DNA of 64,000 bases from Chiloscyllium plagiosum (GCF_004010195.1 NC_057749.1:8309451-8373450), one strand, 5' to 3'. Positions 5,079-51,208 are shown, counted from the stretch's first letter. Made by a program: numbers and translations. The notes: generated by a model not told the origin, from the sequence alone.

Positions 5079-5372
5079 ACAGAACTCTATAGTGTGTTGA
5101 GTCCACACCAACCCTCCAAACAGCACCTTACCCAGTCCCACCCTCCTTTACCTATCCCGCACATCCCAAGACACTACAGGGAAATTTCCCATGGCCAATC
5201 CACTTGTACAACTTTGGACTGTGGGAGGAAACCAGTGCACCCAGAGGAAACCCATGCAGACACAGGGAGAATGTGCAAACTCCATACAGATGGTTGTTCA
5301 AGGCTGGAACTGAACCTGGGTCCCTGGCACTATGAAGCTGTAGTACTAACCACTGAGCCACCGTGCTACCCC
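5079..5372 (-). mobile_element. HE1-type V-SINE
   Basis: Same V-domain and tRNA-derived head. Confidence 0.85.
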
Positions 5373-6155: not shown

Positions 6156-6159
6156 AAAC

Positions 6160-6799
6160 TGTGAGAAACAAAGCTCACTCACTTCAATAATTTCAGTCCG
6201 AGACAAGATCTGAAGCAATCAGTATGTTTATTATACACTTGCAAGCGTGGTGCCTGGAATAGGGTACCCAGAGTTTAGGATTCACTACTCCAAACCCGGT
6301 GCCCATTACTATTGTTTATCTCTTGCCGTATCCGGCCTTGTGCATAACAAAGCACAAGTTTTACTCGGCCATTTCACCACATCCTGCTGTGGCCCATTGT
6401 TAGGTATATTCTTCTTCATGATTATCTTCTTCCTCCACATGTGTGATTTCCTCCCTTTCCCTAACCACATTAATCCTTATGACCTTTTAATTGGGGTTTG
6501 TTTTTGTGTTTTTGCAAAAGTGGGAAACAGATGTTTATAACTACTGCTTGCACAAGCATATCTGGCTTAACCTACGTCCTCACAGCACCTTATCTATTTG
6601 TCTACCATTGTTAGCAGGCACGTTTCATTCTTGCATTACATTTTAGCTAATACAAAAACAATTATATATTTCCTCCACATAGTTTTCATTCTTGTTGACT
6701 CAGTTCTTGGGTTGAAACAATTATACACTGGTGTGAGTACATTTACCTTGCAAAGTAATTATGATTGCAGAAGTAACACTACTTTACCTATATCCCACA
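6160..6799 (-). repeat. 3' LTR of the provirus (640 bp)
   Basis: Direct repeat of 13835-14496; manual count gives about 26 substitutions and 3 indels (one of 20 nt). Preceded by the PPT on the minus strand. Confidence 0.97.
6227..6232 (-). terminator. Probable LTR polyadenylation signal AATAAA
   Basis: tttatt on the plus strand about 70 nt from the U5 end, present in both LTRs. Confidence 0.6.
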
Positions 6800-6800
6800 A

Positions 6801-6817
6801 TTTCCCCCTTTTTCTTT
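6801..6817 (-). promoter_or_regulatory. Polypurine tract (PPT)
   Basis: Minus strand AAAGAAAAAGGGGGAAA ending 1 nt before the TG of the 3' LTR. Confidence 0.9.
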
Positions 6818-6849
6818 AATTACTATTTGTTATCTTCTGCATTTTTCTT

Positions 6850-8777
6850 TTAAGCATTGCCCCCAAAATTCGCAAGTATCATTCCGGAGATTTCATCCAT
6901 CTTAGTCTCACTCATCCCCTCATTATTTAATCGATAAAGTTCCTCTGCCTGATTCCCTTTTAGGGGCATCTGTTTCATTAAGGCTGCCTCAATCAGTCTT
7001 TGGGTGAGCCCTCGTATACAGGATATGATACAACAGCCAATGGCTACCAATACCCCGACTACTACTATCAGGGAAATAAGGATGGAAACCTTCCATTTTC
7101 CAAACCAGGATTCAAGCCATCCCGTGAGAGATGTGTCTAATCCTGAATTCTCAGCCAGTTCCTCTGCTAAGGTAATCAATCCCCTTAAGGCCCAAGTAAT
7201 TGAACCATCAGGTGCAGTTTTATTCGGAATAAAGGTACAACAGCTTCCTCCTAACATCACACACACACCCCATTTTTCCACTAAAATCATACCAAGGGCC
7301 ATTCTGTTTTCCCATGCCATCCTACTTGTCGCATCAAGCTGTTCTGATATTCCTTTAACCACATCTCTTGTATAATTTATAAATCGCTGTTGATTATAGA
7401 AAATGTAATTTATCCAATCTACATTTTTATTAATTGTTACCGACCAAAAGAGAGCTGGCTCAAAGCCTGCTGCAATCTGGTTATGAGCCTTGAATTCATC
7501 AGGTACCCCCCCTAGGGACTCCTATCGAATCGAGATAAATCCTGTCATCGAAAGAAGTGTCTAACAGTGATCTCTTACTCCTTCCCTTTTTCCCTACTAT
7601 CTTTTCCTTCTCAAATGCCAGGGTAAATGGAATTTCCAATTGCACAATTGCACATATCCCTCTCCAATCCGGAGGGAGGGTGGGTCTCAGTATTTTGCCT
7701 CCACAGTACCACCACAGATCCGCTTGGGGAACCTTTAGTGCTGAGTAGTTCCCTCCCTTGTCCGTTTCGATTACATTCTTAATCTCTGTACATAATTTCA
7801 GCTCCCCCAAATCTCTAGACCAATTTGTACCTCGTCTACGCACACACGACGTGTGATTTCCGACTGCAGCTGAAAACGTAGGGGGGCTTTTGAATCTTTC
7901 TTCTCCAAGGGAGGGAACATCAGAGATAAGAAGGTACAGTTCCTATCATTCCATGCAGTCTCATCCTGATACAGGGGATATCATACATTTCATGCCCTTC
8001 CTGTCTCGCTTCCACCCAAGCGGAAAGGGAACCACCTGGGCCACTGGCCTACCGGAGGCACTTGCATAGCAATTGCTCTTATTCAGACTTTTTACAGTAT
8101 ATTTTACCCATTCAACCCAGGCATTTGCATCCCCATATCCAGTTTCTATTTCAATGGTCTGTTTTAAGTCCTTTACCTCTATAACTTTTACTACTTTAAG
8201 GTCATTGGGAGGGGTGAAAGATTGTACCTTATTATCCAGTAGTTCTGCCCGTTTTCCCTGTTCTACACTAATTAAAATAAACAGCCTGAGAAATCATTCC
8301 TGTTTGCTTTCATTTCTACCCCAAATGTTTTATTTAATTGTATCTCATAGATGCCCCCCCCCCCCCCAGAATTGCTTCGTGCCATGTGGTTTTCTTTATC
8401 GTTAAGTATATTGGGTTACACTTTTTATCAGGACAATCGAGAACTGGTCAGAAGGGGGCCTGGTGTACTGTGACGAGACCATTATACCAAGTACCATCCC
8501 CAAGGCCATCCCCATAGGACTTAAGATGTATCTCAGAGCTGCGGTACTGTCTCTGACTATCCACATCCCCACAATTTACTAAGCTGCATGCATCAGCGTC
8601 TATTACTTGTGGATTATCAGACTCAGGAACCGTTAATAACACGTATGAAAATGATATTTGACAAAATCCCGATACTAAGAGGGCTAGCATCATTACTCTA
8701 AACATCCCTAGCATTCTAAAAAAAACGTGCTGAAGCACAAAAAGACTTAATATACAATCCTACAGAAATAATCCCAT
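6850..8777 (-). pseudogene. env: Retroviral env (SU-TM), frameshifted; TM reading frame open from about 7506 to 6850
   Basis: Hydrophobic leader; DACSLVNCGD; IETGYGDANAWVEW; DLWWYCGG; furin site RSKR; YLDSIGVPRG/VPDEFKA; ISD-like WENRMALGMIL; CX6CC (CVMLGGSCC); transmembrane helix. Start coordinate is approximate. Confidence 0.93.
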
Positions 8778-8806
8778 GTTCACGTCGCCACTGTATAATC
8801 AGTTAC

Positions 8807-11800
8807 TCAAAATCTCTTTAGTCTCTTTAGTCTGAGTTTCAGCGGGTCTTGCATTGATTCAGCTGTCCAGACTTCTTCCCAGTCCACTGGCCCTTTGATC
8901 CGTGTGTATTGAGTCCAGCCTTTCTCCGCCGTCCTTATTGCCATTTCGGTAGTCAAAAGAGCCTGATATGGCCCTTCCCAGTCCAGCTGCAATTTAGTCT
9001 CTGTCCATGATTATACTAAGACCCAATCTCCCGGCCGGATGGGATGAACGGTGAATTCAAGGGGCGGAGTCTGTGCCAATAAACCCTGTTTCCTGAGAAA
9101 AGACAAAGAGGAGGACAAGCCCAGTATATACTTCTTTAAGAACAAGTCTTTAGTTTCGGGAATTGGCAATTCTCCATTCGTTCCCAGATAAGGTAATCCA
9201 AATAAGATTTCATAGGGGATAGTCCCAAATCTTTCCTTGGGGCTGTTCGTACTCGCAAGAGAGCTATAGGTAAACATTTCCAAGGGAGTCTTGTTTCTAT
9301 TATCAATTTAGAGAGCTGGGGTTTGAGTGTTTGGTTCATTCTCTCAACCCTTCCTGGTGATGGCGGGTGCCATGGAGTATGGAACTCCCAGGAAATTCCC
9401 AACCCTTTCATTACCCCCTGTAACACTTTAAAGGTAAAATGAGTTCCTTGGTCAGAATCTATACAGTTCACTAGCCCATATCGGGGAATTATGTGCTCTA
9501 ATATTGTTTTAGACACCCCACTCGCAGTGGCAGTAGCTAGGGGGTTTGCTTCAACCCAACCAGACAGATGAACTACTATGACCAGCATATATTTTAGCTT
9601 TCCTACTCTGGGTAGTTCAGTATAATCTACTTGTATACTCTGGAAGGGTCTCAATCCCGGGTCTCTTCCTCCCGGGGTCTGTTTTCTCAAGACTTTCTTA
9701 TTTACCTTTCTGCATATTATACATCCCTCACATATTTATTTAGCAATTGTATATATTCCTTTACATCCATATTCCCTAAGAACTAAATCACACATTGCTT
9801 GTGCTCCCCAGTGACTGCCTTGATGTAGGACAGCCATAATTTCTCGCATCATCATTTTGTTTAACATTTCCCTTCCATTAGGTAACATCCATTTCTCCGT
9901 CTGCTGTTTTTGCAGCCCCTAAATCTCTCAATTCTTTTTCTTCGCTTTCAGTAAATATAGGAGCTTCCCGAGGACCTGGGACAGTAGGTATTAGGGAATG
10001 AATCACNNNNNNNNNNNNNNNNNNNNNNNNNNNNNNNNNNNNNNNNNNNNNNNNNNNNNNNNNNNNNNNNNNNNNNNNNNNNNNNNNNNNNNNNNNNNNN
10101 NNNNNNNNNNNNNNNNNNNNNNNNNNNNNNNNNNNNNNNNNNNNNNNNNNNNNNNNNNNNNNNNNNNNNNNNNNNNNNNNNNNNNNNNNNNNNNNNNNNN
10201 NNNNNNNNNNNNNNNNNNNNNNNNNNNNNNNNNNNNNNNNNNNNNNNNNNNNNNNNNNNNNNNNNNNNNNNNNNNNNNNNNNNNNNNNNNNNNNNNNNNN
10301 NNNNNNNNNNNNNNNNNNNNNNNNNNNNNNNNNNNNNNNNNNNNNNNNNNNNNNNNNNNNNNNNNNNNNNNNNNNNNNNNNNNNNNNNNNNNNNNNNNNN
10401 NNNNNNNNNNNNNNNNNNNNNNNNNNNNNNNNNNNNNNNNNNNNNNNNNNNNNNNNNNNNNNNNNNNNNNNNNNNNNNNNNNNNNNNNNNNNNNNNNNNN
10501 NNNNNNNNNNNNNNNNNNNNNNNNNNNNNNNNNNNNNNNNNNNNNNNNNNNNNNNNNNNNNNNNNNNNNNNNNNNNNNNNNNNNNNNNNNNNNNNNNNNN
10601 NNNNNNNNNNNNNNNNNNNNNNNNNNNNNNNNNNNNNNNNNNNNNNNNNNCCAATAGCTTCGAAAGATATGCTACTGGCTGTTTCATTCCTCCCCACCTC
10701 TGGGTTAATACTCCCAAAGCCGCTCCCTTATCCACGGTAGCAAAGAGATGGAAAGGTTTATCTAGTGAAGGTAAGGCTAACACGGGGGCATGGATCAGAT
10801 CTCTTTTGAGTTTCTCAACTAGTTCTTTTTCCTCATCGTCCCAACTTTGATTCCTCCTCTAATAGTTTGAGATATAATTTCTTAGTCTTTTAAGCATAAG
10901 AAACAATCCACAATCTGCAATATCCCGTTAGAGCCAAAAATTTACGTAACTCCCATTTAGTCCTGGGCAGCGGCATCCCCACTATTCCCTCTATCCGTTC
11001 CGGGCTTACCTTTCGCTTTCCCTCACTAACTAATGTCCCAAGTATTTCACTTCTCGCTCCACATGTTGTAATTTGTTTTTAGATACTCGCAGGCCCTGCT
11101 GACCCAGGAAATTCAATAATTTGTTAGTGGCTTCTACTACCCTTTCTCTTCTTTTTCCTGATACCAAGAGGTCGTCTACATACTGCAACAGGGTAGTCCC
11201 CTTGGGGCTGCTACATTTCTCCAATATTTGTTCTAGCATCTGTCCAAATAAATTCGGGGATTCCATAAACCCCTGGAGGAGCACGGTCCACCGGTATTGC
11301 TGCTTCCGTCCTGTCTTGGGATCTTCCCATTCAAAGGCAAACAAATTCCTACTTTCCTCCGCCAAGGGACAAGCACAAAAGGCATCCTTTAAATCTGTCA
11401 CACTAAACCATTTGTGGTCATGAGGGATCTTACTTAATAACGTATAGGGATTTGGCACCACTGGGTGCCTGATCTGTACTATTCGATTCAATGTTCTCAA
11501 ATCCTGCACCAATTGATAAGTTCCATCGGATTTCCGCACTGGTAGAATTGGGGTATTATAAGGAGACATACATGGCTCCAACAGTCCATCTCTAATCAGT
11601 CCCTCAATTACGTGCTGCAGTCCTCGTTTACCTTCTATGGAAATGGGATATTGTCGCTCACAAAATGTCCCCTTTCCTTTTTAAACTTATTTCTAGGGGA
11701 GGGATCTGTATTTTTCCACGATTCCCTTCCCTAGCCTATACAATAGAGTCTATCTCTCTCTCCACATCCTCTGTCAACATTGCCATTTGTACAACTAATT

Positions 11801-12139
11801 CTTTTTCCTGAATTTCAATCTCCAGTCCTAAGAGGATAATTAAATCTCTCCCTAGTAAGTTATTTCCTATGTCAGGGATATACAACAGTTCCCTGTGACT
11901 CTATCCTTAGGACCTTCTATCATCATAGGTTCAAATACTGGAACAGTAAATCCTTCCCCTTTTACCCCGGAAACAGTAATTGACCGTGTTGACATTCCTA
12001 CTTTCTTTGGTTTAAAATTCAGCGATGACGGTGCTGCCCCCATATCTACTAGGAAGACCACCTCTTCCCTACAGGGCCCAACCTTCAAGTTTATCAAGGG
12101 TTCCTGGTGGGTCCCCAGGGGCAGGAACCCCTGACACCC
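8807..12139 (-). pseudogene. pol: Retroviral pro-pol (protease, RT, RNase H in the gap, integrase), disrupted
   Basis: Protease FLVDMGA (DTG mutated). RT PYNTPILPVRK, DLKDAF, QGFMESP, YVDDLL. Integrase HHCC region plus IQVDYTELP, IDSDQGTHF, GRVERMN. Several stops and frameshifts. Confidence 0.95.
10007..10650. other. Assembly gap (644 N) within pol, over the expected RNase H region
   Basis: Run of N. Confidence 1.
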
Positions 12140-13519
12140 CTATTCTTCATCAAAATTCATAAGCGGAATTGCCCTTTCTTCCCTTTGTAGATCAGGACAC
12201 TCCCGCTTAAAATGCCCTATCTTTCCGTTATAATAGCATCCTGCCTGTGGAGAATTCCATCTCTGTCCCTGTCGCCCGAACCCTCTATCAAATGCTCCCC
12301 CTTGTCCTCTCCCTCTCCCTCTGCCTCTCTGTCCTACATGCTGCCACTCGCCGCTCCAATTGCTCACTATTGGTTCCATTCTTTTCTTAACAACTTCTTC
12401 AACCGTAGTTACCATTATTTTCGCCTTCTGTTTTTGTCTTTCATCCTCTCTCTTTACAAACACTTTCTGTGCCTCTCTTAACAATTCATCTAATGGTTTT
12501 TTGCTCCACCCTTCCAACTTCTGTATCTTTCTCTGTATGTCTGGCCATGCCTTTGTCACAAAATGTACTTTCAAAAGACCCTGTGCCATTGGATCCTCAG
12601 GGTTCATTCCAGAGTATTTCCGCATTGAGTCTCTTAATCTTTGCAAGAAAGTTGAGGGAGTCTCATCTTTCTCCTGTCTAACTTCAAGGGCTTTAGTCAA
12701 ATTCTGCGACTTCAGAACTGCCTGTCTTATTCCTTTTAGAATCAGGTCTTTCAATTCCCTCATTTCTTCTCTATGCTCCCATCTCCTTTTTAAATGTTCT
12801 GACCTCCCCACTGGTGAGGGGGGCACTCACAAACCCAATCTCTTTGTCCCCTGTTGGTACCTCCCGAAGGGGATAAGTCTTTACGTTCCTCCCCTTGTTT
12901 TGTTTTTGTTTTTTCCCCCTTAGGCTTTGGTTTAGATACTCCGGAGGCCTCCTCTACATCTACTTTATCTTCCCTTTCTTTTGTTGAGGATTGAGGGTCG
13001 GAACAACAACATCCCCGTCCACCGCCCCTTCGTCCTCCTCTTGTGGGTCATCCCTTCCCTGTCCCTGCCTGTCTGTCTCTCCTCCTCCCCCATTTTCACC
13101 TAATCTGATTTCATGGTACGGGGTGGGGGGCAAGCGCCAAGAGGATCCCAGGGACTGGGTGGGGCAGAGGGGGAATCCTTTGTCTTTACTACCATCATTC
13201 CCAAACTGCCCTTCCAACAGGATGCATAGTCCGCCTCTTCTTGACTAAAAGGTTGGTTTTTATTCACATACAAATCTAAATACTGACACATCCAATCCTC
13301 GTCCGAACCATACTTTGGCAGAAGACAGCCGGGCGAAGGATTGGTTCTTTGGTCCATACTAAACAACAATATTTAATCATTTTCTTTTTATCTTTTACCC
13401 TTGTACAAGTGTTACTTGTCCATTCCCGCAACATCCTCCCCAACGGACTTTCAGGAGGAATGTTACCAGGGACTTTTTCTTTCTTTACTCCGTGACAATT
13501 ACTCTGCCTACCCCCCCAT
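12140..13519 (-). pseudogene. gag: Retroviral gag (MA-CA-NC), frameshifted and with an internal CA deletion
   Basis: Removing one G from a G-run restores an MGGRQS myristoylation start. MA: IPPESPLGRMLREW...KKKMIKYCCLVW...WPKYGSDEDW. CA start PLREVP..IGFVSAPLTSGEVRTFKKE; MHR-like VRQEKDETPSTFLQRL; degenerate knuckle CYYNGKIGHFKREC; ends in TAG. Confidence 0.93.
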
Positions 13520-13815
13520 TTCTCGGGGTCCTCGCCAGTCCCTCAGCGATTAAATATCCCTTTTCCCGGCCACCAAGGCAATACTTAAAAGTCAGTTTTC
13601 TTACCTTGGTCTGTGCACAGAGTTGCCTGGCCCCTTGTTGCCATATGCTCTATCGACCTCCTTTCACTGTCTGATTCAGATGTCTCTCTTTTGGGATTTG
13701 TACCAGTCGCCCAAGGGAGCGGACTAAACCGGGACACGAGACTGCTCCTCAATTGGGAACGGGACGTGTCTTCCCAGTGTCCAGGGCCAGCTACTCCCCC
13801 CAGCGATAGAAGAAC

Positions 13816-13832
13816 ATCCCGGACAGCCCCCA
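13816..13832 (-). promoter_or_regulatory. Primer-binding site, tRNA-Pro
   Basis: Minus strand TGGGGGCTGTCCGGGAT, 2 nt after the 5' LTR. Matches the canonical Pro PBS TGGGGGCTCGTCCGGGAT with one C deleted. Confidence 0.9.
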
Positions 13833-13834
13833 GT

Positions 13835-14496
13835 TGTGAGAAACAAAGCTCACTCACTTCAATAATTTCAGTCCGAGACAAGATCTGAAGCAATCAGTAT
13901 GTTTATTATACACTTGCAAGCGTGGTGCCTGGAATGGGGCACACAGAGTTTAGCAAGTACATATCGTATATAGGATTCACTACTCCAAACCCGGTGCCCA
14001 TTACTATTGTTTATCTCTTGCCTTATCTGGCCTTGTGCATAACAAAGTACAAGTTTTACTCGGCCATTTCACCACATCCTGCTGTGGCCCATTGTTAGGT
14101 ATATCCTTCTTCGTGATAATCTATTTCCTCCTCATATGCGATTTCCTCCCTTTCCCCAACCATATTGATCCTTGTGACCTTTTAATTGGGGTTTGTTTTT
14201 GTGTTTTTGCAAAAGTGGGAAACAGATGTTTATAACTCCTGCTTGCACAAGCATATCTGGCTTAACCTACATCCTCACAGCACCTTATCTATTTGTCTAC
14301 CATTGTTAGCAGGCACGTTTCATTCTTGCATTCACATTTTAGCTAATACAAAAACGATTATATATTTCCCCCACATAGTTTTCATTCTTGTTGACTCAGC
14401 TCTTGGGTTGAAACAATTATACACTGGTGTGAGTGCATTTACCTTGTATAAGTAATTATGATTGCAGAAGTAACACAACTTTACCTATATCCCACA
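13835..14496 (-). repeat. 5' LTR of the provirus (662 bp)
   Basis: Plus strand reads tgtgagaaac...tatcccaca, a direct repeat of 6160-6799, adjacent to the PBS. Confidence 0.97.
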
Positions 14497-14502
14497 AAAC
14501 TT

Positions 14503-14783
14503 AGAAGCCCTGCAGTGTGGAAGCAGGCCATTCAGCCCATACAGTGCATATGAATCCTCCAAGGAGCATCCCACCCAGACTGTATTTCTTATGGCTAATC
14601 CACCTAGCCTAACTTAAGCATGGCCAAACCACCTAACCCACACATCTTTGGACTGCGGGAGGAAACCAGAGCAGACATGGGGCGAACGTGCAAACTCCAC
14701 ACATAGACACCTGAGGGTGGAATCATACCCATGTTCCTGGTGCTGTTGGGAGCAGTGCCAACCACTAAGCCACCATGTCGCTC
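14503..14783 (-). mobile_element. HE1-type V-SINE next to the 5' LTR
   Basis: V-domain. Apparent TSD caaactt at 14784-14790; the left copy is split by the ERV. Confidence 0.8.
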
Positions 14784-15360
14784 CAAACTTCTGACGACTT
14801 CCTTGCATGGCTCAGTGTCAAATTCTGACTGACAGAAGAGCTTTGAGAAGCATTTCTACGTTAAGGCCAGTGTGTAAATACTGTGTAGTGTTGCGATGCC
14901 CACAATCCAAGGATTCTGAATGTCACCAGCGTTTACAAAAACAGCTTGGAGTATAAAATCGGTTACTCAACTGAAGTCAAGCAATGACTTCTGTTTGTCA
15001 GCAACGTTTGAAGCAATGAAGGACTTGTGTTGATTAAATGTCAAAGCCAAGGTCCGAAGCATTAAATCAACATGAGGGGTCGACTTCCCTTGCTGGAGAT
15101 AACTGGGAGCAGTCGGAGGTTATCTCACTTAATAACAGTTTGGAAACATTTTATTCTTCAAATAAATAGCAAAAAATAAATAAAGCAGATGTGATGATTG
15201 CTGAGCGTGGCTGACATTTAAAAAAAATAACGCCCTGAGGCATTAAGATCCAATAGTTACTCATCGAGTCTGGGCACAGTAAGTACTACTCAGATATTAC
15301 ATTGCCACTTGTTGGACCAGTTCTTACCTCAATTGGCCAAGAGCTATCAGGTGGAAGTTT

Positions 15361-17821: not shown

Positions 17822-19467
17822 TGTAGTGGTTGTAACAAGGTCAGCCAGATGGATCCTATAGAATATGAGTTCTTTGATTGGAGCTATTAACCCGGCCCAA
17901 TCAGGGAGCCCTGGCTGACAGATGTAAACAGGAATGTCAGAGATTCTGTTCATGCTGAGAGCTTACGCTGAGGAACAAAGAACAAAGAAAATTTACAGCC
18001 CAGGAAGAGGCCCTTCAGCCTTCCAAACCTATGCCAATCCAAATCCACTGTCAAAACCTATCGCCCAATTCCTAAGGATCTGTATCCCTCTGCTCACCAC
18101 CAACTCATGCATCTGTCCAGATGCACCTTAAATGAATCTACCATACCTGCCTCCACTACCTCTGCTGGCAACGCGATCCAGGCACCTACCCCGCCTCTGA
18201 GAAAAGTACTTACCGTGTGTACCCCCCTTAAGCTTTTCTCCTCTCACCTTAACACGTGACCTCTCATTATTGAATCCTTCGTCCTGGGAAAAAGCTTAAG
18301 TCTATCCATCCTATCTATACCCTTCATGATTTTGTAAACCTTAATCAGGTCCCCCTCAATCTCCTTTTTTTTAATGAAAACAATCCTAACCTACTCAACC
18401 TCACTTCATAGCTAACACCTTCCATATCAGACAACATCCTCATAAACCTTCTCTGCACTCTCTCCAGAGTGTCCACATCCTTTTAGTAATGTGGCAACCA
18501 GAACTGCACACAGTATTCTAAGAACCAAAGTCTTGTACAATTTTAACATGACCTGCCAAGCTCTTATACTCAATATCCAGTCTGAAGAAGGCAAGCATAC
18601 CATGTGCCTTCTTGACCACTCTATCCACTTGCGCAGTCACCTTCAGGATACAATGGACCTAAACTCCCAGATCTCTCAACTTTTCCTAAGGCTTTTCCAT
18701 TTACAGTATAGTTTTCTTAGAATTAGACCTTCCAAAATGCATCACCTTACATTTGCCTGGGTTGAACTCCATCTGTCACTTCTCTGTCCAACTCTCCAGT
18801 CTGCCTGTATTCTCCTGTATTCTTTGACAGTTCCCTATGCTTTCTGCTACTCCACCAATCTTCATGTCATCTGCAAATTTACAGATCAGACCAACAATGC
18901 CCTCTTCCAGATCATTTATGTATATCACAAACAACAGTGATCCCTGTGGAACACCACTGGTCACCTTTCTCCATTTCAATTACTACCATTCAAACTCCCT
19001 TCAATTACTACTCCCTGTGTCCTGTTGCTCAACCAGTTCTTTATCAATCTAGCTAGAACACCTTGATCACCATGTGACATCACTTTCTCCATTAGTTTAC
19101 CATGGTCAACTTTATCAAATGCCTTACTAAAGTCCATGTGTATGACATCTACAGCCCTCCTTCATCTATTAACTTGGTCACTTCCTCAAAGAACTCTATT
19201 AAGTTGGTAAGACACAATTTTCCCTGCGTAAAACCATGTTGTCTATCACTGATAAGCCCATTCTCTTCCAAATATAAATAGATCCTATCCCTCAGTATCT
19301 TCTCCAGCAACTTTCCCACAACTGACATCAGGCTCACTGCTCTGTAGTTGCCTGGAATATCCCTACTACCCTTCCTGAACAGGAAGCTGTATTAGTCTCA
19401 AGTACAATGCATGTGTAAATAAAGGATGACTTGATGATGGGATACCAGCTTCTATGGAGCTATTTCA
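17822..19467 (+). mobile_element. Solo LTR interrupted by a CR1 insertion
   Basis: Ends TGTAGT...ATTTCA with flanks ggcat/gacat. Contains CCAAT and AATAAA. A related copy lies at 56570-56724 (minus). Confidence 0.6.
17976..19380 (-). mobile_element. CR1 LINE, 5'-truncated ORF2 RT region
   Basis: SLMSVVGKLLEKIL, QHGF..GK.CLTNLIEFFE, VTSGVPQGS, KFADD. Tail gaacaaagaacaaag; aggaa at both junctions. Confidence 0.9.
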
Positions 19468-20292
19468 GACATCAAACTAAATTTTTATTGAAATCAAGTT
19501 TGTCATTTGCTCTGTGTAGGAACTTGAACCCAAACCCTCGTGACATTAAGCCTACAGTTGGAAACTCTCTTCAAGTGAAAATGTCCATCCCTTAACCATG
19601 GATGAAACACTGAGAATAATAGTCCAAGAATGTTAATTGGTGAAGAACCTCATCAATAGGCTCAGTTCATAAGTGAACAGTTTAGATTTTTGCACATGGA
19701 AGAAGGGATGCATTGAGAACAGATAAAATAGCTTTCACTGGTACAACGTCTCTTCAAAGCGAGTGACAAGTGTTTCTCATGACACAAAGAAACATACCTG
19801 CTCAAGATGTAGATGAAGCCTTAGTTTAGCATCTTACCCAAGGAGACAGCAGCTCTGACAATGCAGAACTTCCTCAGCACGTCATGTTTGATTGGACCGC
19901 CTTCCTGAAATTGTAGTGGGGCTTGAACCTGCAGCCCTTTTAACTTGGAAATGAATGTTTCCTATCAAGGCAGGCTGACACATATACACAAGCTGACTGT
20001 TCTGCTGATGAATGTAAAATGATCTCAATTATTCGTTTGCTGGGTCAAGGTTTCGAAGCTCCCCCAACTGGTTGCTGGATAACAAAATTGTGACATCAAG
20101 ACCAAAGGGTTTGTCAATTCAATTCTGAGTCTTTGCTGTGTTGATGTATCTCAGCTGTCTTGCAAAAAGATTGTGACATTTAAGTTCAGGGAGAGACTAA
20201 GGTATAAAAAGCTGGAGGCTGGATGTTTTGACAGGTGTTGGGACTCTACTATCGAGCCCATTTGACAGCCTGGAACCTGCCCATGTTAGAAG

Positions 20293-27538: not shown

Positions 27539-28021
27539 TACTTAGGGGTTGCTTTGTCACTGACCTCCACATCTTGTGATCAAGTGATAATTCCACCATT
27601 TCAACCACAAGTAACTAGATCGGGGAATCACTAGATAATTGACACTGAATTACTACAATGCTGCTGAGGTGGATATAGTTAAGTGCATTAAGATCACCAA
27701 CAATCTGTACTGGTCTTCCCATGTTGACGCAATGGTTAAGAAAGCACAATAACGCCTTTATCAGGCACAGACACCATTATCCTTCTCACCGCCCTTCTCA
27801 GTCCAGGGCACTCTGGTCACCACCATATGCCAAGCAGTGACCAGAGTGCAAAGAACAAACAATAGGGCAGCACAGGAATTGGCATTTTGTCCTCACTATC
27901 AGCAGATCTCCCAATCCTTGTATCATCCACAACTTACTACATTCTCCTCCAGATCATTGATATACATTACAAACAACAGAGGTCTCAGCATTGATCCCTG
28001 CAGAACGTTACAGCTCACAGT

Positions 28022-28719
28022 ATCGGTATCAATGGTCAAGAAAGCACACCAACTCCTCTACTTCCTCAGAAGGCTAAGGAGATTTGGCATGTTCACAGAT
28101 ACCCTTACCAATTTTTGTAGATGCATCATAGAAAGCATCCTTTCTGGATACATTACGGTGTGGAATGGCAACTGCTCATCCCAAGACCACAATAAATTAC
28201 AGAGAGTTGTGAACGCAGTCCAGTCCATCAGGAAAAGCAGCCTTCCATTCATTGACTCCTTCTATCCCGCTGCCTTGGAAAAACAGCCAACATAATCAAA
28301 GACCCTCCTACCCCGCTTATACTCTCTTCTATCACATGGAAGGTACAAAAGTTTGAAAACAGGTACCAACAGATTCAAGAACAGCTTCTTCCCCACTGTT
28401 ATCAGACTTATGAATGGACAACTCACATATTAGAGTTGATACAGTTTCTCTGCACCTTCTCTGTAGCTGTAACACTATATGCTGCATTCTGTTCTTGATG
28501 AAGAGCTTATGCTCAAAACGTCGATTCTCCTGCTCTTCAGATGCTGCCTTACCAGCTGTACTTTTCCAACACCACACTCTTCGACTCTGATCTTCAGCAT
28601 CTGCAGTCCTCACTTTTTCCTCCATTCTGTTCTATTACCCTGATGTACTTATGATTTATCTGGCTAGCACGCAACACAATGCTTTTCATTGTATCTTGGT
28701 ATAATAAATCAAATCAAAT
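28022..28719 (+). mobile_element. Rex1/Babar LINE 3' fragment inserted in a CR1; contains a Penelope tail at about 28490-28625
   Basis: KKAHQLLYFLRRLRRFGM..TLTNFCRCIIESILSG..VWNGNCS.QD..KLQRVV; tail (aaatc)n. Confidence 0.85.
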
Positions 28720-31396
28720 CTCCAAACAGAAAAACACCCTCTCACCACTCCTCTCTGACTAAGCCAGTTCTGAATTCAACTGTATCCAACTTACCTGCTC
28801 ACTGTGGATTCCCTATGATCCCTTTTGTATCAACCTGCCATGTGTAACCTTGTCGAATGTCCATATAGACATCATCTACCATTATCAATCATCATCTTTG
28901 TCACTTCCTGAAAAAGCTCAATCAAGTTGGTGAAATATGACCTTCCCCACACAAAACAATGCTGCCTATCACTAATAAGTCCATATTTTCCCAAATGCAA
29001 ATAAATTCTATCCCAATCTTGTCCAATAACTTCCCTACTACTGTTGTAAGGTTCACCGGCCTGTAATTTCCCAGATTAAACCTGTCACCCTAATTAAACA
29101 AAGGAGCAATGTTGGCTATTCTCCAACCCCCTGGAATCTCTCCTGTGACTAAATAGGATACAAACATTTTGTATAAGGTGCCAGCAATTACCTCACCTGC
29201 TTCCCTCAGCATTCTGGGATAGATCAAATCAGGTACTGAAGACTCGTCTACCAGGAATACCCAGCAATAAATTTCCAAAATACCCAGTACCACCCTCTTT
29301 GTTATGTTAGCATGTTCCAGGATATCAAAATACTCCTCCCCGAGAGTCACTGTCCACCATGTCCTTCTCCTGTGTGAATATCAACGCAAAATATTTGCCA
29401 AGGACTCCACCCACAGCCTTTGGCTCCAACACATAAATATTGTGATAATTACCCTTCTTCCAATTTAATACTTTCACCTGAAGACTACACTTATACTTAT
29501 CCAAAAATAGCTTAAAATTTACAGAATTATGGTCAAGTATTTAAATGTAATATCTTCCTATTCCTAGCCTCACTGGCCCGTGACACAGGAAGTAATCATG
29601 AGATTGCAACCTTCAAGGTCCTGCTTTTCAACTTCTTGCCAAACTCTCTTTTCAGTGCCTCATCTCTCTATCTGCTGATATCATTGATACCAACATGGAT
29701 CATGACTACCCTCACCCTTCAGAATATCCTGTACCTCAGTGACATCTTTGACCTTGCCACCAAGGAGGCAACATACCATCCTAGAGTCTTGTTTGTGGTC
29801 ACAGAAAGGTCAATATGTGCCCCTAACTCTCAACTGTCCTCCCAATATTGCCCACTTCGAGCCTCCCGGCTGTACAACAGTCGTGCCACTGGTCTAGCTG
29901 TTGCTGTTGCTTTCCCCTGAGAGGCCATTCCCTCCGAACAGTATCTGAAACAGTAATACCTGTGTGATAGAGGAATGGCCACAGGGGATTCCTGCACTGC
30001 CTGCCCTGTTTACTCACCTCTTCTCTGTCTGTGATGCCCTTACTGGCGGTGTGACCAATACGCTAAATTGCTATCTGCAACATTCTCAGTCTCATGGACG
30101 CTCCATAGTGAATCCTTCCACTGCTCCCGGCGCTCCATGTGGTAAATCAGAAGCTGCAGCTGAGCACACTTCCTGCATTTGGACTCACCATGGAGACTGG
30201 AAATGGCTCTGATTTCCCACAGATTTCCCACAGATTACAGGAAGAGTATTCCACGGAGACAAGCTCTCCTGCCGTTGTGAACTTTATCGACTAAATCAAC
30301 CTTAGCAGTGACAGATAATAATCCAGAAATCAATTAAACACCCTTACCCACTACTTACCAAACTCAGGACTCTCATTCCCACTCCTCAGGGATTTACCCC
30401 CCTATTCACCCCCAGGTTCACTCTGACTGACCCCGCTCCTCAGGGATTTACCCTCCTGTTCACTCCCAGGTTCACTCTGACTGACCCCGCTCCTCAGGGA
30501 TTTATCCCCCTGTTCCCCCCTCCGTTCAGTCTGACTGACCCCACTCCTCAGGTATTTATCCCCCTGTTCTCCCCTCGGCTCAGTCTGACTGACCCCACTC
30601 CTCAGGGATTTATCCCCCTGTTCCCCCCTCGGTTCAGTCTGACTGACCCCACTCCTCAGGGATTTATCCCTCTGTTCTCCCCTCGGTTCAGTCTGACTGA
30701 CCCCACTCCTCAGGGATTTATCCCTCTGTTCTCCCCTCGGCTCAGTCTGACTGACCCCACTCCTCAGGTATTTATCCCCCTGTTCTCCCCTCGGCTCAGT
30801 CTGACTGACCCCGCTCCTCAGGGATTTATCCCCCTGTTCCCCCCTCGGTTCAGTCTGACTGACCCCCTCCTCAGGGATTTATTCCCCCTGTTCACCCCTG
30901 GGTTCAGTCTGACCCCACTCCTCAGGGACTTATCTCTCTGTCCATCCCTCAGTTCACTCTGACCAACCCCACTCCTCAGGGAATTATCCCTCTGTCCATC
31001 CCCAGATTCACTCTGACCCCACTCCTCAGGTATTTATCCCCCTGTTCCCCCCTCGGCTCAGTCTGACTGACCCCGCTCCTCAGGGATTTATCCCCCTGTT
31101 CCCCCCTCGGTTCAGTCTGACTGACCCCGCTCCACAGGGGTTTATCCCCCTGTTCCCTCCTTCGGTTCAGTCTGACTGACCCCGCTCCTCAGGGATTTAT
31201 CCCCCTGTTCTCCCCTTCGGTTCAGTCTGACTGACCCCGCTCCTCAGGGATTTATCCCCCTGATCTCCCCTCGGATCAGTCTGACTGACCCCGCTCCTCA
31301 GGGATTTATGCTGCTGCTGCACACCCCTAGGTTGGCCCTGTTGCTGTTGCTCTCTCTGTTCGACTGACGTCCGTCCAGGCCCCGCTAAATTTCAAG
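28720..31396 (-). mobile_element. Internally deleted CR1 LINE with ORF2 pieces, ORF1 remnant and 5' UTR
   Basis: ORF2: PDLIYPRMLREA..IAG.L...GEIPGGWRIANIAPLF. ORF1: WEIR...CRKCAQLQLL...MER.EQ..DSL. The minisatellite lies upstream of ORF1; the 5' boundary is approximate. Confidence 0.75.
30379..31309. repeat. 54-bp minisatellite, about 17.3 units
   Basis: Unit cc(a/g)ctcctcagggatttatccccctgttcccccctcggttcagtctgactgacc, with starts at 30379, 30433, 30487, 30541 and so on. Confidence 0.97.
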
Positions 31397-33265
31397 AGGT
31401 GTGACCACCAAGTGCAAGTACTTCCTTTTTTATTGTTGAGTGTAGAATCTTCTTCAACAGACCACACTGCACTTACTGAGCAATCAGGGGAACTCAGCTT
31501 GTCATCTCTTTGGCCATCACTAAGTTGCTGAAGCAAGCAGTTACCTGCAGACTCTCTTGCAGTGACGCCTGGTACAGTGGACACATCATCTCCAGTGGCG
31601 GTGATTCAACTGCAGTCACTATATAAATGCAGATTCTTTCTCCCCAGAGTTTGAACACATACTGACAACAACTGCAACGAAAGGACACATACAGTGCCAA
31701 ATAGCAGGTTAAAGCCAGCCCCGTATTTAATGCAACACAAAACTCTTGTGTACATAATCAGAGAAGCAACAAAACAACAGCAGTTCTGACTTTAGACTGA
31801 GGCTCAAACGCCGCCTTATTGCAACCTCACTCAGCATTCAAATGACGTACAGCACAGGATAACGCAAAGAGCAGAGCAAGAAAATAAATATAAATGTCTC
31901 GATAAGTGATAAAGTGGGTGAGAGGAAGTGGTAGCCTCCTCCCAGAGCGAGGCTACCAAGTGAACACATTGCTCTGATTTAATCCCCACAAGGAAGGGTC
32001 AGGTAGGTTTACAGAGCTGCAATGTTGTTGTATAGAATGGACCAACATTTACGCATTAACTTGCAGGTCACTGCCCTTCACTTGTTCTGGATTCACAGGT
32101 TCAAAAACACTTAGGCAAAGTGCGAAAACTCGACACAATGCGTGCTGGTAACTCATGGCCGGCTGAGCAAGGCTGACCAAGAAAAATTACATCGAGTTCA
32201 AATGACTGATTTATGAAATGAAAGGATTGTGGATTGTTGACTTGAAAGCCTGCAGCAGCCGAGAGAGACTATCACAGAATCACTGAAGGGTTACAGTGCA
32301 GAAGGAGGCCATTTGGTCCATTACGTCTGCACTGGACCTTCAAATGTCAGAGGAAGTGGTAGATGCAGGTACAGTTACAATCTTTAAAAGATATTTGGAT
32401 AAGTTCCTGAGTAGGAAAGGTTGGAGGGATATGGACCAAGCGCAGGTAGTGGGACTAGTTTAGTTTGGAATGATGGTCAGCATGGACTGGTTGGACTGAA
32501 GGGTCTGTTTCCGTGCTGTGTGATTCAATGAGACTATTTGGCAAATCATGCCTGTGCTGTCCCCATGAAAGTCCTTTAGATGTCATCCTTCCCCACTCAG
32601 CTCTTTTCCCCCAAGTTTCTAAAAAACGTTTTGTCAAGTGCTTATCCAACTCCCTCTTCAAAATTGCTAAGGAATCTGCTTCTAGATTCAGTCATAAAAA
32701 ATAATCCCCTCATCTCTGATTGTCCTATTAGTTATCCTTAATCTGGCTATGGATCCTTGTGCTAGTCGGACTATGCTCTCCCTATTTACTCTATTAAAAA
32801 ACCCTTCAAGTGCCAGTGTTGGACTAGGGTGGACCAGGTGAAAAGTGAACCTGTTGAAGGGGTTGTGCTCTGAAAGCTTGTGATTTCAAATAAATCTGTT
32901 GGACTATAACCTGGTGTCGTTTGACTTTTGACCTTCAAAGGTTGGAATGCTCTCTATTACATCTTGCAAATGCAAGGCGAAACAATATGTTTTTCACATA
33001 GCGAGTAGTTAAAATGCACTGGCTGGAAGTGTAGTGGATGCAGGTTCAACCGAGGCTTTCAAGAGGGAATGGGAAGGTGGTTTAAATTGAAATAATTGCA
33101 GGGTTACAGGGAAAAGGCAAGAGAGAGCCACAACTGACCTTGATCTGTGGCTCTACGATTTCCTCTGAACCTGTTAATCTCTTAGAAGCACAATCTCAGC
33201 TTCCCTATTCTCTCCATATAACTGCATCCCTAAAGATCTCCCCTGCTTATTGCTTGATGCAGTGC

Positions 33266-35750: not shown

Positions 35751-36009
35751 AAAGTCAGAAGTCACATGACACCAGGTTATCGTCCAACAGGTTTATTTGA
35801 AATCACAAGCTTTTGGAGCGCTGCTCCTTCATCAGGTGAAGTGAAGAGATGACACACCATTTGTATGATAATTTGATGTCTCTGATTATAAATTCTGTGC
35901 CTGTGTGTCTTCACTTCACTTTACCTGACAAAGGGGCAGCGCTCCAAAAGCTTGTGATTTCAAATAAATCTGTTGGACTATAACCAGGTGTCATGTGACT
36001 TCTGACTTT
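35751..36009. mobile_element. Fold-back pair of Penelope-type termini with hammerhead-like cores
   Basis: Arms about 35751-35855 and 35903-36009 are reverse complements. Minus strand tcacCTGATGAaggagcagcgctccaaaagcttgtga. Confidence 0.7.
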
Positions 36010-36074
36010 CTTGAATAACAGAGCAGGATAGAAGGGTTCAATTGCCTGTTCCTAGCTCTTATGTTCTTATATAT

Positions 36075-37415
36075 CCAGGTCAGCAGATGGAATATAACAT
36101 GGGAAAATGTGAAGTAATACACTTTGGTAGGAAGAATAGAGGAGTTGAATATTGTTTAAATGGAGAAGGACTACAGAAAGTTGTAGCACTGAGAATCTGG
36201 GAGTGCATAAAAGTTAGCATCCAGGTTCAGCAGGTAACAGTGAAGTCAAGTAGAATGTTGTCCTTTATTTCAAAGGGAGTGGAATGTAAAAGTAAGAAGG
36301 TCTTGTTAATTACGCAAGGCACTAGTCAGAAACAAAAGCAGAAGTGGCTGGAAAATCTCAGCAGGTCTGGCAGCATCTGTGAAGAGAAATCAAAGTTAAT
36401 GTTTCGAGTCCAGTGACCCTTCTTCAGAACTAGCCAGAACACAGCTGGAATACTGTGAACAGTTTATCTTTATCAAAGCAAAGGTGTGATGACATTGAAG
36501 GCTGTCCAGAGAAGGTTCATCAGGCTGTTACCAGGTATGAGGGGACTGTCTTGTAGGGGGAGAAGTTGAGTCTATACTTATTGGAGTTTCAAAGAATGAC
36601 AGGTGATGTTATTGAAACATACAAGATTCTTACAGAACTTAACAAGTTAGATCCAGAGCTGTTGTTTCTCCTTGTGGGAGAGTCTAGGACCAGAGGGCAT
36701 CATCTCAGAATAAGGGGTTGCACACATAAGACAGAGATAAGGAGGAAGTTTTCCTCTTAAGAGATCTTGGAGTGCAGGTTCATAGCTCCTTGAAAGTGGA
36801 GTCGCAGGTAGATAGGATAGCGAAGAAGGCGTTTGGTATGCTTTCTTATATCAGTCAGAGTATTGAGTACAGGAGTTGGGAGGTCATGTTGCGGCTGTAA
36901 AGGACATTGGTTAGGCCACTGTTGGAATATTGCGTGCAATTTTGGTCTCCTTCCTTTTGGAAAGATGTTGTGAAACCTGAAAGGGTTCAGAAAAGATTTA
37001 CAAGGATCTTGCCACGGTTGGAGGGTTTGAGCTATAGGGAGAGGCTGAACAGGCTGGATCTGTTTTCCCTGGAGCATCGGAGGCTGAGGGGTGACCTTAT
37101 AGAGATTGGGTTGTGATATCTGGTCGGCATGGACGGGTTGGACCGAAGGGTCTGTTTCCGTGCTGTATATCTCTATGACTGAATGACTGTCAGAAGATAA
37201 CGAAATTCTTTACTGCAAAAGGCCATCAAGGTGGTTTTATTAAGTGCATTTGAAGCTCTGAGATAGGCAGGTTTTTAATCAGGAAGGGAATAAAGACTTA
37301 TAGGGAAAAGGAAGTGGAATCAAGAATTGGCAGATCAGACACAATCTTTTACAATGGCACAACAGACTGGATGGCCTGAATGGCCTACATCTGCTCCTTC
37401 ATCTTATGGTCTTAT
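36075..37415 (+). mobile_element. CR1 3' region interrupted by a Penelope tail (36332-36428) and by a second CR1 (about 36760-37185)
   Basis: QMEYNMGKCEVIHFGRKN; VRPLLEYCVQFWSP; 11-bp near-TSD actagtcagaa/actagccagaa. Confidence 0.8.
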
Positions 37416-38054
37416 AATATACGTCAAAAAAGAGGTTCTCGAAGAAGGGACTGGAACTTGTCAAATGCTAGCTCATGTCCACTGCCATTGATTGACAAAG
37501 TGTAATTGTGCAGCTTCAGAGAGGTTAAATAGCACTTTTATAGTCGTCCACACAACACGTGATTATGGAATGGAATTCAAATGAGCATTGACAACGAGAC
37601 AGTTTGAACTTTTGATGGTGAATGAAAGGAAATAAATAAATTAATATTTGTCAAAAAGTAAATGGGTGGAAGCTCATGCGGTCTGAGGGATGGGGTGAGA
37701 TTGGTGGTAGAGTCAGGTGACAAATGAAGTAGGGCCCGTTTTGACACCAAAATCATCTCACTCTATCTCTTACGCTTTTCACAAGCAGCATAGTGAGATT
37801 CTCACTGAACAGTAGCCAGATAACAATTGAGGATCATTATTGCCTTATTAGCAGCCCAGATCCTCTGATTCATATTCAGTGAGATACAGCTCACCACTTA
37901 CTTGAGAGAGATGCAGTTATTCAAGGAGATGAGAGTGGGTGGGCACAGCTTATACTGGCGAGATAAAGGTTGGGAGTGTCCCCAAGTGAGGGAGTCAGCA
38001 GCGCAGAGGCCACGCAGAGTTAGTAGCATTGGTGTTTGGGCTGATAAGATCAAG

Positions 38055-48280: not shown

Positions 48281-50213
48281 TAACTTCAGAGCAGAAAGGA
48301 GTTCAACAACAAAAACAGTTTGTCAAGCCACAGCTGGCAGATGATTTCACAGGGTTCCGTACGTTCATGGTAAAACCTAAACAAAAAGCAGAATTTGCTG
48401 AGGTTAATGATGTTAGAATGAGTTTTTCGTTTCATTGTCAATGAGATGGCAAACTGTGACTATACTGGTTTGGCAGAAATGTTTTCCACTGCTCACTAAA
48501 CTGCAGATTCCAAGAGCCAACAAACTTTGAGATGAGTCAGAATAAAGGCAGCAACTGAACCGCTGTATCCCCCGTCCTGGAGGTTGATTTAGCTCTGTTG
48601 GCTGGATGGCTGGTTTGTGAAGCAGTTCTTCTACGCAACTTCCCCCGCTCAGAATGACAAGAGCAAAATATGCAGGGGAGGACCACCACTTAGAAGGTCT
48701 GCTCGATTTGACTGAGCGGTAGACATTTGCTGAGTCAATATTTATGAACAGTGGGCAGTGGACCAGAGAGATCTGGTGTGTTCAGGGTTAGCCAACTTCA
48801 GATCCAATCGAAGAGAATTAGGGGTGGAATCTTTTCGGGGTCTGAATAATGTGGGCAGTTTTGAGAAATGTGGCAGAATTGCAGTGAGGCCTCTTCTGAT
48901 GTTGGGACCGACACGTTAGCATGCTAATTTCTAGATGTATTGTCAAGATTCTCACTAGACGGCAGTGAGGTGTCTATAAAGGGGGATTTTTGATCAGTTT
49001 GGAAGGTGCTGACGAAGAGGCGTCCATGTTTTAGATGGTACCCATTGCTGCCACCATATGTCCGCAGTGGAGGAAATGAATGACTAAGGCAATGAAGAGC
49101 ATGGATTTGATTTACTAGGATGTGTGAGCGATCACCCAAAAGTGGAAGGAGCAACTTTTCATTGAGGAAGATAGAAAAATAGTTGTAGCAGAGCAGTGGA
49201 ACATGCGAAAGAGATATGCTGATCATGCTTTTGGCATGGCGCGATTCTGATCTCCCCCATTACTGAAATGTAAACCACAAATGTAAGAGTGAGAAAGGGG
49301 GAAAGTAGAGATTAGTAAACACCCAGACTGACATGGCGCTATGTGAGATCAGTAATGAGCACATTAACACATTTGTCTGCAATTCCTCTGTGCACCCATT
49401 GTAATAACGATTCCACTCCATTAAAGGAAGCGTCTTTATTGAGAATATGACAGGAACTTCATATGAGTGAGTTAATGCAAAAGAAGAAATTTCAACCCAC
49501 TGTGTAATAACATTCGTTACTAATATCACACAGTCAGACTTCACCATAACTGCATCAAAACAAAAACGCCAGCTACAATGAACTGCTATTACACAGTGGG
49601 CTGGATCTTATTACATTTGCCTCACAAACCACACTATCACTTTCCCAGGCAAAAACAGCGTATGTAATTTTCTTTTCCTCACGAGAGGATTGGCATGATG
49701 TTTGCAGAATATATTGCTGCTGGGAAGGTTAGATGGTTCTGCCAAGCCACCAGACTCAAACTTGGTCCAAACTTTCAAATAACAGCGAAATCCTGAGAGT
49801 GCTCGAAATCTGAAACAAAATGCAGAGGATGCTGGAGGAACTCGCAGGTCCGGGAACATCCGTCAAGAGAAAAACCAAGTCAATGTTTTGAGTTTATTGT
49901 GACGTTTCTTCAGAAGAGTGCATACTGTGCCACCTCAGTTGGTTCATTAAAGGGCACTCCTGCTCCTCCGGGGAACCTAATCCTTTCTGCTTAACGATAC
50001 CATCCGATCTGGCTGGTTAGGATTCAGTAGCAGGTGCTGCTGAGCCTACTACAGTGCAAGGCGATGACTGGGTTTTGAAAGCCAGGGGTAAAGGATGTGG
50101 TGGTGGGGAAGGGGATGAAGAACAATTGGGACATCTTCCTCCAATTAATGTACCTTCCGTTCCTCGCTTCACATCAAATCAGGTGCAAACTCTGCCTCCT
50201 TACTCTTGCTCGA

Positions 50214-50586: not shown

Positions 50587-50599
50587 AAGTGTACGACAA

Positions 50600-51127: not shown

Positions 51128-51208
51128 CAGTTAGTCTGAGGGTGGGTCAGTGTTTGAGTGCCTTACCCACAGCCCATACTATGGACACCATGGCACGGAG
51201 GGTGGGAA

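Follow-up and report, generated by a model that had tools for sequence, protein, structure and literature searches.

How did a provirus whose envelope resembles that of a primate retrovirus group come to lie in the genome of a shark, and what does its kinship say about the hosts between which such viruses have moved? This question is raised by a stretch of 64,000 nucleotides from Chiloscyllium plagiosum (GCF_004010195.1, NC_057749.1:8309451-8373450; hereafter the window, with positions counted from its first letter), which carries at 6160-14496, on the minus strand, an endogenous retrovirus (ERV) of 8,337 bp. An initial annotation, made from the sequence alone, had described the element as a complete, envelope-bearing provirus of the HERV-I/HERVIP10 type with relatively recent activity. 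The results presented below make it highly probable that the locus holds a copy, now dead and fixed in the germline, of an abundant ERV family of class I (gamma-like) in an orectolobiform-type shark, that its kin belong to the lineage of the primate envelope protein EnvP(b)1, and that transfer between hosts is the likeliest origin of this kinship.

Structure and decay of the provirus

The provirus is built in the order long terminal repeat (LTR), primer-binding site (PBS), gag, TAG, pro, pol, env, polypurine tract (PPT) and LTR, all on the minus strand, on which it starts with TGTGGG and ends with CTCACA. The 5' LTR (13835-14496, 662 bp) and the 3' LTR (6160-6799, 640 bp) form a direct repeat; both run TG...CA and contain AATAAA, at 13902-13907 and 6227-6232, respectively. 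They are enclosed by the target-site duplication GTTT, whose upstream (14497-14500) and downstream (6156-6159) copies were read directly from the sequence and are identical. Two bases past the 5' LTR lies the PBS, TGGGGGCTGTCCGGGAT (13816-13832), one base short of the 18-mer of the murine leukemia virus (MLV) type, and the PPT, AAAGAAAAAGGGGGAAA (6801-6817, also read directly), precedes the 3' LTR. Paired LTRs within a duplicated target site, together with a PBS and a PPT at the expected places, characterize the element as a retroviral provirus. Of 12 retroviral genomes from IMG/VR, 8 have the MLV-type 18-mer pattern immediately behind U5. In four sister copies of the provirus it recurs, altered by one mismatch, an extra base or small deletions. 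The PBS of the window copy is one that, from established knowledge of MLV, we take to be of the tRNA-Pro type. Between the two LTRs, 26 of the 640 aligned bases are mismatched (p = 4.06%; Kimura two-parameter distance 4.2%), and there are four gap events, of which one is a gap of 20 bp in the 3' LTR. The layout, the 4-bp duplication and the LTR divergence of about 4% given by the initial annotation were all reproduced by these measurements.

The genes were mapped from stop-to-stop open reading frames (ORFs) of the minus strand, from Pfam searches with 13 unrepaired pieces and from tblastn comparisons with intact relatives. The gag gene (12140-13542) is split into four frame segments and ends in TAG. 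It comprises two matrix (MA) pieces (13276-13542 and 13100-13372), after which a p12-like stretch comes, and the C-terminal half of the capsid (CA) with the nucleocapsid (12140-12826), in which Gag_p30 was recognized at 1.6e-23. Of the 201 profile positions, only 93-201 are spanned by this match. The N-terminal half of CA lacks about 79 residues, residues 258-336 of the relative P0241 having no counterpart. The tail of Gag (...MNFDEE) is followed by TAG and then, in the same frame, by the protease (11867-12139), which is the read-through layout of gammaretroviruses. Reverse transcriptase (RT) and the start of the RNase H-like connection occupy 10651-11680, with an open piece at 11030-11680, the motif YVDD and six stops within the match at 10652-11662. 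The remaining connection and RNase H part of pol is covered by 644 N (10007-10650), where residues 483-792 of the relative P0003 find no match, and RNase H is accordingly only partly visible. The integrase (8891-9903) lies in two frames with one stop per match. RVT_1 (1.6e-27), RT_RNaseH_2 (2.9e-11) and rve (1.3e-10) all exceeded the Pfam cut-off. The env gene (6850-8759) extends over three frames with stops; its surface subunit (SU) was recovered at 8448-8759, 7961-8293 and 7499-7942 and its transmembrane subunit (TM) at 6850-7521. The N-terminus of Env is of the EnvP(b)1 type, and both an RSKR cleavage site and a CX6CC motif are present. TLV_coat remained below the Pfam cut-off (16.9 vs 22.5 bits), and the identity of Env was settled by homology search instead. 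Seven of the 13 pieces had no Pfam match, among them the three SU pieces, the protease, the C-terminal integrase piece and the second MA piece. The domains thus follow each other on one strand as Gag, protease, RT, RNase H, integrase and Env, and the minus-strand ORF and tblastn map contained no additional ORF between pol, env and the LTR.

Decay has affected all of these genes. At least three frame changes and several stops were found in pro-pol, and functional motifs deviate from those of the relatives: the active-site motif of the protease reads LVDMGA, and the CXXC motif of SU reads CYAS where an intact relative has CYAC. Judged from its sequence, the copy is dead and would no longer allow protein production, because every gene is broken by frame changes, stops or the missing part of the capsid. 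The architecture initially called complete is therefore complete in its layout and not in its genes.

Envelope relationships

Relatives of Env were collected by protein searches. A quick tree was built from 85 rows hand-chosen from 120 listed matches, with fused models of more than 800 residues dropped, and a careful tree from 42 of these rows and 574 columns, rooted at its midpoint. Taxon sampling in the whole study is that of the search listings (the best 120 of 616 matches, the best 120 of 188, and 11 proteins for gag).

The N-terminal SU piece of the window has a single sequence match in the PDB, namely 6W5Y, which is EnvP(b)1's receptor-binding domain (3.6e-6). A gibbon Env obtained in the TM search (P0138) is EnvP(b)1 itself, as its match to 6W5Y at 3.3e-99 demonstrates. 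The TM piece of the window is 89-90% identical to an intact Env of Chiloscyllium punctatum (P0121), and P0121 and P0138 share 48% identity over 618 residues, which include the Env motifs quoted in the initial annotation. The fold was tested on P0121 in place of the broken window copy. Its AlphaFold model (mean pLDDT, the model's own confidence measure, 70.7; alignment of 43 sequences) matched only three PDB chains at E<=0.001, all of them from 6W5Y (E 3.7e-7 to 2.2e-6; target TM-score 0.57-0.61).

Both trees gave the same picture. Marsupial Env, primate EnvP(b)1, bird Envs and shark Envs form one clade (100/99 in the careful tree, 99* in the quick tree), and the Envs of teleosts and frogs lie outside it in separate groups. 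Within the clade, the careful tree unites primates with birds plus sharks (98/89), birds with sharks (98/96) and the sharks with each other (100/99), and the window Env groups with two Envs of C. punctatum (100/99). All Env and MA motifs quoted initially were found in the provirus. The assignment of the Env motifs to the EnvP(b)1/HERVIP lineage is borne out by the tree, by the matches to 6W5Y and by the alignment with P0138, and it agrees with reports that trace ERVPb1 to a HERVIP10B3-like virus (PMC8123466) and group it with HERVIP Env (PMC4724089), as far as the sections consulted of these papers go. The identity of P0121 to its relatives differs strongly between domains. In the receptor-binding domain it amounts to 15-29% for sharks, 19-28% for birds, 23-27% for mammals and 12-19% for frogs and teleosts; in the C-terminal domain of SU to 52-76%, 61-64%, 48-53% and 33-36%, respectively; and in TM to 69-84%, 72-78%, 63-65% and 62-68%. 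A search of 1.84 billion representative sequences returned 2,123 matches at E<=0.001, of which 335 were at <=1e-30, and in this set the EnvP(b)1-type clade collapses to one representative.

Compared with EnvP(b)1 (ERVPb1/ERVPABLB-1), the envelope of the HERV-P(b)/HERVIP10 group of simian primates, the shark Env is thus homologous over its full length, at 48% for the intact relative. The two have in common the N-terminal DAC...CGD motif, 6W5Y as the best PDB match of the fold, membership in the same Env clade, a Pro-type PBS and an A-rich genome. They differ in that the window holds a decayed shark provirus, whereas EnvP(b)1 is a conserved, co-opted primate gene; moreover, their receptor-binding domains are only about 24% identical, and the shark Envs are nearer to those of birds than to those of primates.

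The same tree bears on an ancient vertical history, in which an early jawed vertebrate was infected, the virus diverged along with its hosts or persisted in them, and the present patchiness reflects loss and poor sampling. A long residence in elasmobranchs is indeed suggested by the occurrence of the family in three shark orders and of its RT in rays, the family is diverse within the genome (RT 66-93% identical), and the Env tree is unrooted. However, sharks are sister to birds within a clade that also contains mammals, full-length Env identity between shark and bird is 57-62% and thereby at least as high as that to several other shark Envs (52-58%), and the Envs of teleosts and frogs stand in separate groups. 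When the ten amniote Envs were forced together, the likelihood fell by 20.2 log units, and the monophyly of amniote Envs was rejected by the approximately unbiased (AU) test (p = 0.0124). A purely vertical history is in view of this evidence improbable.

Relationships of pol and gag

The careful RT tree comprised 62 rows and 217 columns, with 36 of the 120 listed matches, 14 copies from the shark's own genome (68-93% identity) and 11 IMG/VR genomes. The open RT piece shares 80% identity with the protein P0003 and 72% with the ERV of a swallow; a rattlesnake ERV follows at 71% and three ray ERVs at 69-71%; the nearest named relatives among the listed matches are bird ERVs (60-72%). In the tree, a stem of 0.87 leads to a clade of sharks, rays, snakes and birds (100/99). 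Nine MLV-type genomes fall outside it and together with a caecilian ERV constitute its sister group (95/90). The element accordingly stands beside ERVs of amniotes (birds and snakes) and not beside those of teleosts or frogs, and Env agrees with this; in both phylogenies the tetrapod-like affinity proposed initially was recovered.

Its RT, Gag_p30, the single stop between gag and pro-pol in one frame and the CX6CC Env place the element in class I in the gamma-like sense. The narrow genus Gammaretrovirus, for which RT should fall inside the crown clade of exogenous viruses, does not include it, since its RT belongs to the separate clade (100/99). With MLV-type viruses it shares the genome plan, the 4-bp duplication, the tRNA-Pro 18-mer, the in-frame gag-TAG-pro junction, YVDD, Gag_p30 and a gamma-type Env. 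It differs from them in its RT, which is 45-50% identical to that of the nine MLV-type genomes, and in the EnvP(b)1-type receptor-binding domain of its envelope. The whole Pol of close relatives is 37-39% identical to the MLV type. For one of these reference genomes (L004) the MLV type was confirmed, its RT being essentially identical to the RT of Moloney MLV (MMLV) in the PDB (3.9e-146).

A fish host might lead one to expect an epsilonretrovirus-like element, since in fishes class I ERVs are usually of this type, and the RT tree is without a labelled epsilonretrovirus reference. Nevertheless, the best solved relative of the RT is that of MMLV (1.1e-53), its identity to two other IMG/VR genomes of about 10.2-10.3 kb is 39%, against the values given above for the MLV type, the provirus measures only 8.3 kb, pol, env and the LTR follow one another with no accessory ORF in between, and its CX6CC Env and in-frame gag-TAG-pro junction are of the gamma type. 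An epsilonretroviral identity is for these reasons very improbable.

The gag search returned 11 proteins, two of them at 67% and 58% identity, an armadillo Gag at 62%, with 60% of the query covered, and a protein from a godwit at 45%. The MA motifs IPPESPLGRML, KKKMIKYCC and PKYGSDEDW are common to four gag relatives, including the armadillo Gag. The armadillo model (P0246; 538 residues, 43 member sequences) is 58-62% identical in MA and CA and has kept the MA motifs, so that the members of the gag lineage include a mammalian one whose frame is open.

In three pol-env models from swallows, which belong to the same RT clade (P0049, P0050 and P0076), the identity of env to the EnvP(b)1 type is only about 22%, which points to either an exchange of env within the pol lineage or chimeric gene models.

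Such bird models with a different env bear on the possibility that the element is a mosaic, formed when an EnvP(b)1/HERVIP-like env was captured by recombination onto an unrelated gag-pol backbone of shark or bird type. Incongruence between pol and env is, moreover, widespread among anamniote ERVs according to the available text of Chen et al. (bioRxiv 10.1101/2021.11.23.469661). On the other hand, birds are among the nearest non-shark relatives in both RT and Env, and the Pol of HERVIPADP has been likened to that of the avian gamma-like element ChiRv1 in the portion consulted of Vargiu 2016 (PMC4724089), with which a bird-related pol is in keeping. The Pro-type PBS and the composition also fit HERVIP: the coding strand of the provirus contains 32.3% A, and HERVIP genomes are described as having more than 31% A in that portion of the same paper (PMC4724089). 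A mosaic origin is consequently possible, though rather unlikely. As to names, the label HERV-I/IP used initially merges two groups, because HERVI and HERVIP are placed in different supergroups in the part of Vargiu 2016 (PMC4724089) that was available. Avian HERV-I-like elements were confirmed earlier (Jern 2005, PMC1224870, in the sections consulted). These and the ChiRv1-like avian ERVs (PMC1224870, PMC4724089, same portions) are comparable to the present family in that bird ERVs are its nearest named RT relatives and bird Envs its sister group, the identity given in the sequence records being generic; they differ in that some bird members carry another env.

Host, family size and age of the copies

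The best named matches of the Env TM are from sharks, namely Chiloscyllium punctatum (89%), Heterodontus francisci (74%), Mustelus asterias (71-78%) and Scyliorhinus torazame (73%), which corroborates the shark host assumed in the initial annotation. Searches over the 3.56-Gb genome itself revealed a large family. Matches to a 31-mer taken from the LTR at its U5 end numbered 1,807 at up to three mismatches, and the reversed control of this 31-mer did not match at all. The 5' LTR had 41 matches, of which the full-length ones were 86-93% identical. The RT piece gave 5,090 first-look candidates, and the 150 listed of 151 matches all had E<1e-87 at 66-100% identity, the value of 100% being the window itself. 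Env gave 4,102 first-look candidates, of which 70 were scored; a stop-free env was found in none of the six matches that span nearly the whole query. The genome-wide count and the search for intact copies thus demonstrated the abundance of the family and yielded no open, nearly full-length Env among those six.

Nearest named RT matches in birds could be taken as a sign of bird or reptile contamination, or of an assembly artefact, as the cause of the locus. This explanation is effectively refuted: the approximately 1,800 LTR matches are distributed across contigs of chromosome size, a repeat abundant in the host genome lies in each flank, annotations of close Env relatives exist for five shark species, and 64-88% of the words taken across the flank-LTR junction are present in eight sequencing runs of the same organism from two studies. 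In seven runs of a second organism (three studies) the share was 38-43%, which is uninformative on the presence of the provirus there. No RNA runs were among those listed with flank-LTR junction words.

Nine other LTR pairs of the family were compared. Eight two-LTR copies differ by 1.7, 2.1, 3.0, 3.3, 3.7, 3.7, 5.1 and 5.2%, and the ninth pair, in a tandem-like arrangement, has no difference over 354 comparable bases, the remainder of the LTR being N. The window copy, at 4.1%, is hence among the older of the ten pairs measured (0-5.2%). With T=K/2u and an assumed rate u of 0.5-2e-9 substitutions per site per year, its age would be roughly 10-40 million years, a rough figure that depends on the assumed rate; sharks are described as slowly evolving in the consulted part of PMC8455134. 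The claim of relatively recent activity is weakened in this respect, since a divergence of 4% in a slow shark genome probably corresponds to tens of millions of years.

Six family copies, including that of the window, were informative for flank duplications, and four of them have an exact 4-bp duplication and two a 5-bp match. In these latter two copies the 4-bp register does not fit. One LTR of the family has a PPT in front of it and a PBS behind it, and this suggests that provirus, LTR and provirus are arranged in tandem there. Next to the window provirus, the left flank is unique in the genome for about 790 bp, and beyond it an abundant short repeat of about 200 bp is located at 5171-5372 (5,274 first-look candidates, 81-88% identical). 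At 14501-14790 the right flank holds an abundant repeat, about 285 bp long, with 8,294 first-look candidates at 73-77% identity. This repeat starts exactly past the target-site duplication, so that the provirus lies at its very edge.

Origin of the lineage

The anatomy of the element allows its former life cycle to be outlined. Reverse transcription would have been primed by tRNA-Pro at the PBS and from the PPT, and the integrase would have inserted the DNA, leaving the 4-bp duplication. Gag would have been made up to the TAG codon and Pro-Pol by read-through in the same frame. The envelope may be pictured as a covalently linked glycoprotein of the gamma type (CXXC in SU, CX6CC in TM, a furin-type RSKR site) whose receptor-binding domain was of the EnvP(b)1 type. 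Since its copies keep env, the family probably spread in the main through reinfection of the germline. Its virus lineage appears to be common to birds, snakes, rays, a marsupial and primates, the last with EnvP(b)1 from a HERVIP10-like virus. The most likely history includes at least one transfer between elasmobranchs and amniotes, in either direction, because the distribution of hosts does not follow host phylogeny.

A wider interpretation can be offered tentatively, and in its entirety it is somewhat doubtful. EnvP(b)1/HERVIP-type viruses would not be confined to primates; they would constitute a lineage that passed between amniotes and galeomorph sharks, in which the shark viruses are nested by those of birds, expanded later and were active until very recently. 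The very recent activity is based on LTR pairs that range from 5.2% down to no difference and on intact env models in the sister species. If this interpretation is true, human EnvP(b)1 gains a traceable pan-vertebrate ancestry, and the nesting of the shark viruses next to those of birds implies a jump between sea and land, followed by an expansion to well over 1,000 LTRs in a genome of the bamboo-shark type.

Several points weigh against the proposed history. The Env tree has no outgroup and depends on a midpoint root, and the group submitted to the AU test was picked after the tree had been seen. The receptor-binding domain of P0121 is only 15-29% identical even among sharks. The inner splits of the RT clade are weak (elasmobranchs plus snakes 81/49, birds 63/34), and the taxon sampling is limited to what three protein searches listed. 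Moreover, the element is tied to the human HERVIP group only by env, the one gene compared with that group, and swapping of env occurs in the RT clade, so that pol and env may have different histories. Even with these reservations, the connection of Env with the EnvP(b)1/HERVIP lineage appears real in the present data, as does the sister relation of sharks and birds, and both are modestly new.

Part of the subject has already been described. The available text of Chen et al. (bioRxiv 10.1101/2021.11.23.469661) catalogues 25,498 ERVs with a gamma-type Env in fishes and amphibians; its six cartilaginous fishes include Chiloscyllium, three of the six have more than 500 copies, and 46 orthologous ERV groups are recorded within Chiloscyllium. 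These ERVs (e.g., ERV-GA.a-Cpu) are elements of the same kind in the same range of host genera, with a gamma-related pol and a gammaretroviral structure. They are presented differently, in that this text does not mention HERV or EnvP(b)1 and calls most anamniote Envs divergent from those of amniotes. In the sections consulted of Xu et al. 2018 (PMC6001957), retroviruses of cartilaginous fishes are scattered through the retroviral tree and many transfers between water and land are proposed, and the part consulted of Han 2015 (PMC4422223) treats only ERVs of the elephant shark, in general terms. The initial annotation had named an already catalogued family as grounds for abandoning its view. This applies in part, given the shark gamma-Env ERVs of Chen et al. 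and the transfers of Xu et al. in the texts just cited, and the locus is an ordinary, dead representative of a class I ERV family that is abundant in the shark and probably already catalogued. A full-text search, to which subscription journals and the supplements of Chen et al. were outside reach, found no report linking shark ERVs to EnvP(b)1 or HERVIP. PMC9604959, in its accessible part, deals with EnvV and not with the EnvP(b)1 lineage.

The interest therefore lies in the lineage, in which a human co-opted fusogenic protein, EnvP(b)1, is tied to abundant ERVs of sharks and birds at 48-62% Env identity. In its section on ORF conservation, PMC7683403 reports that non-primate databases contain no sequences related to EnvP(b)1. 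The present searches run counter to this: in the listed Envs from sharks, birds, a marsupial, frogs and teleosts, TM is 42-89% identical. The view that EnvP(b)1 lacks relatives outside primates has to be qualified; the wider interpretation set out above, if true, would contradict that section. A toad protein has already been named 'PABLB member 1 Env-like' by NCBI. The family also provides a concrete, testable case of retrovirus transfer between marine and terrestrial hosts, a process so far described mostly in general terms (PMC6001957, in the sections consulted).

Other features of the window

No further copy of the provirus family was found elsewhere in the window by tblastn with gag, pol and env relatives, and Pfam recognized no host gene in the 18 long frames outside the provirus. 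The sole credible domain match among these frames is ALKBH8_N (1.4e-7) in an open frame of 180 residues at 27753-28295 on the plus strand. One other long frame had two matches with no significant stretch. Strong GC skew was measured at 18000-20000 (-0.30), 28000-32000 (-0.29/-0.30), 36000-38000 (+0.26) and 50000-52000 (+0.24); the provirus is similarly skewed, and these segments may be other strand-biased insertions.

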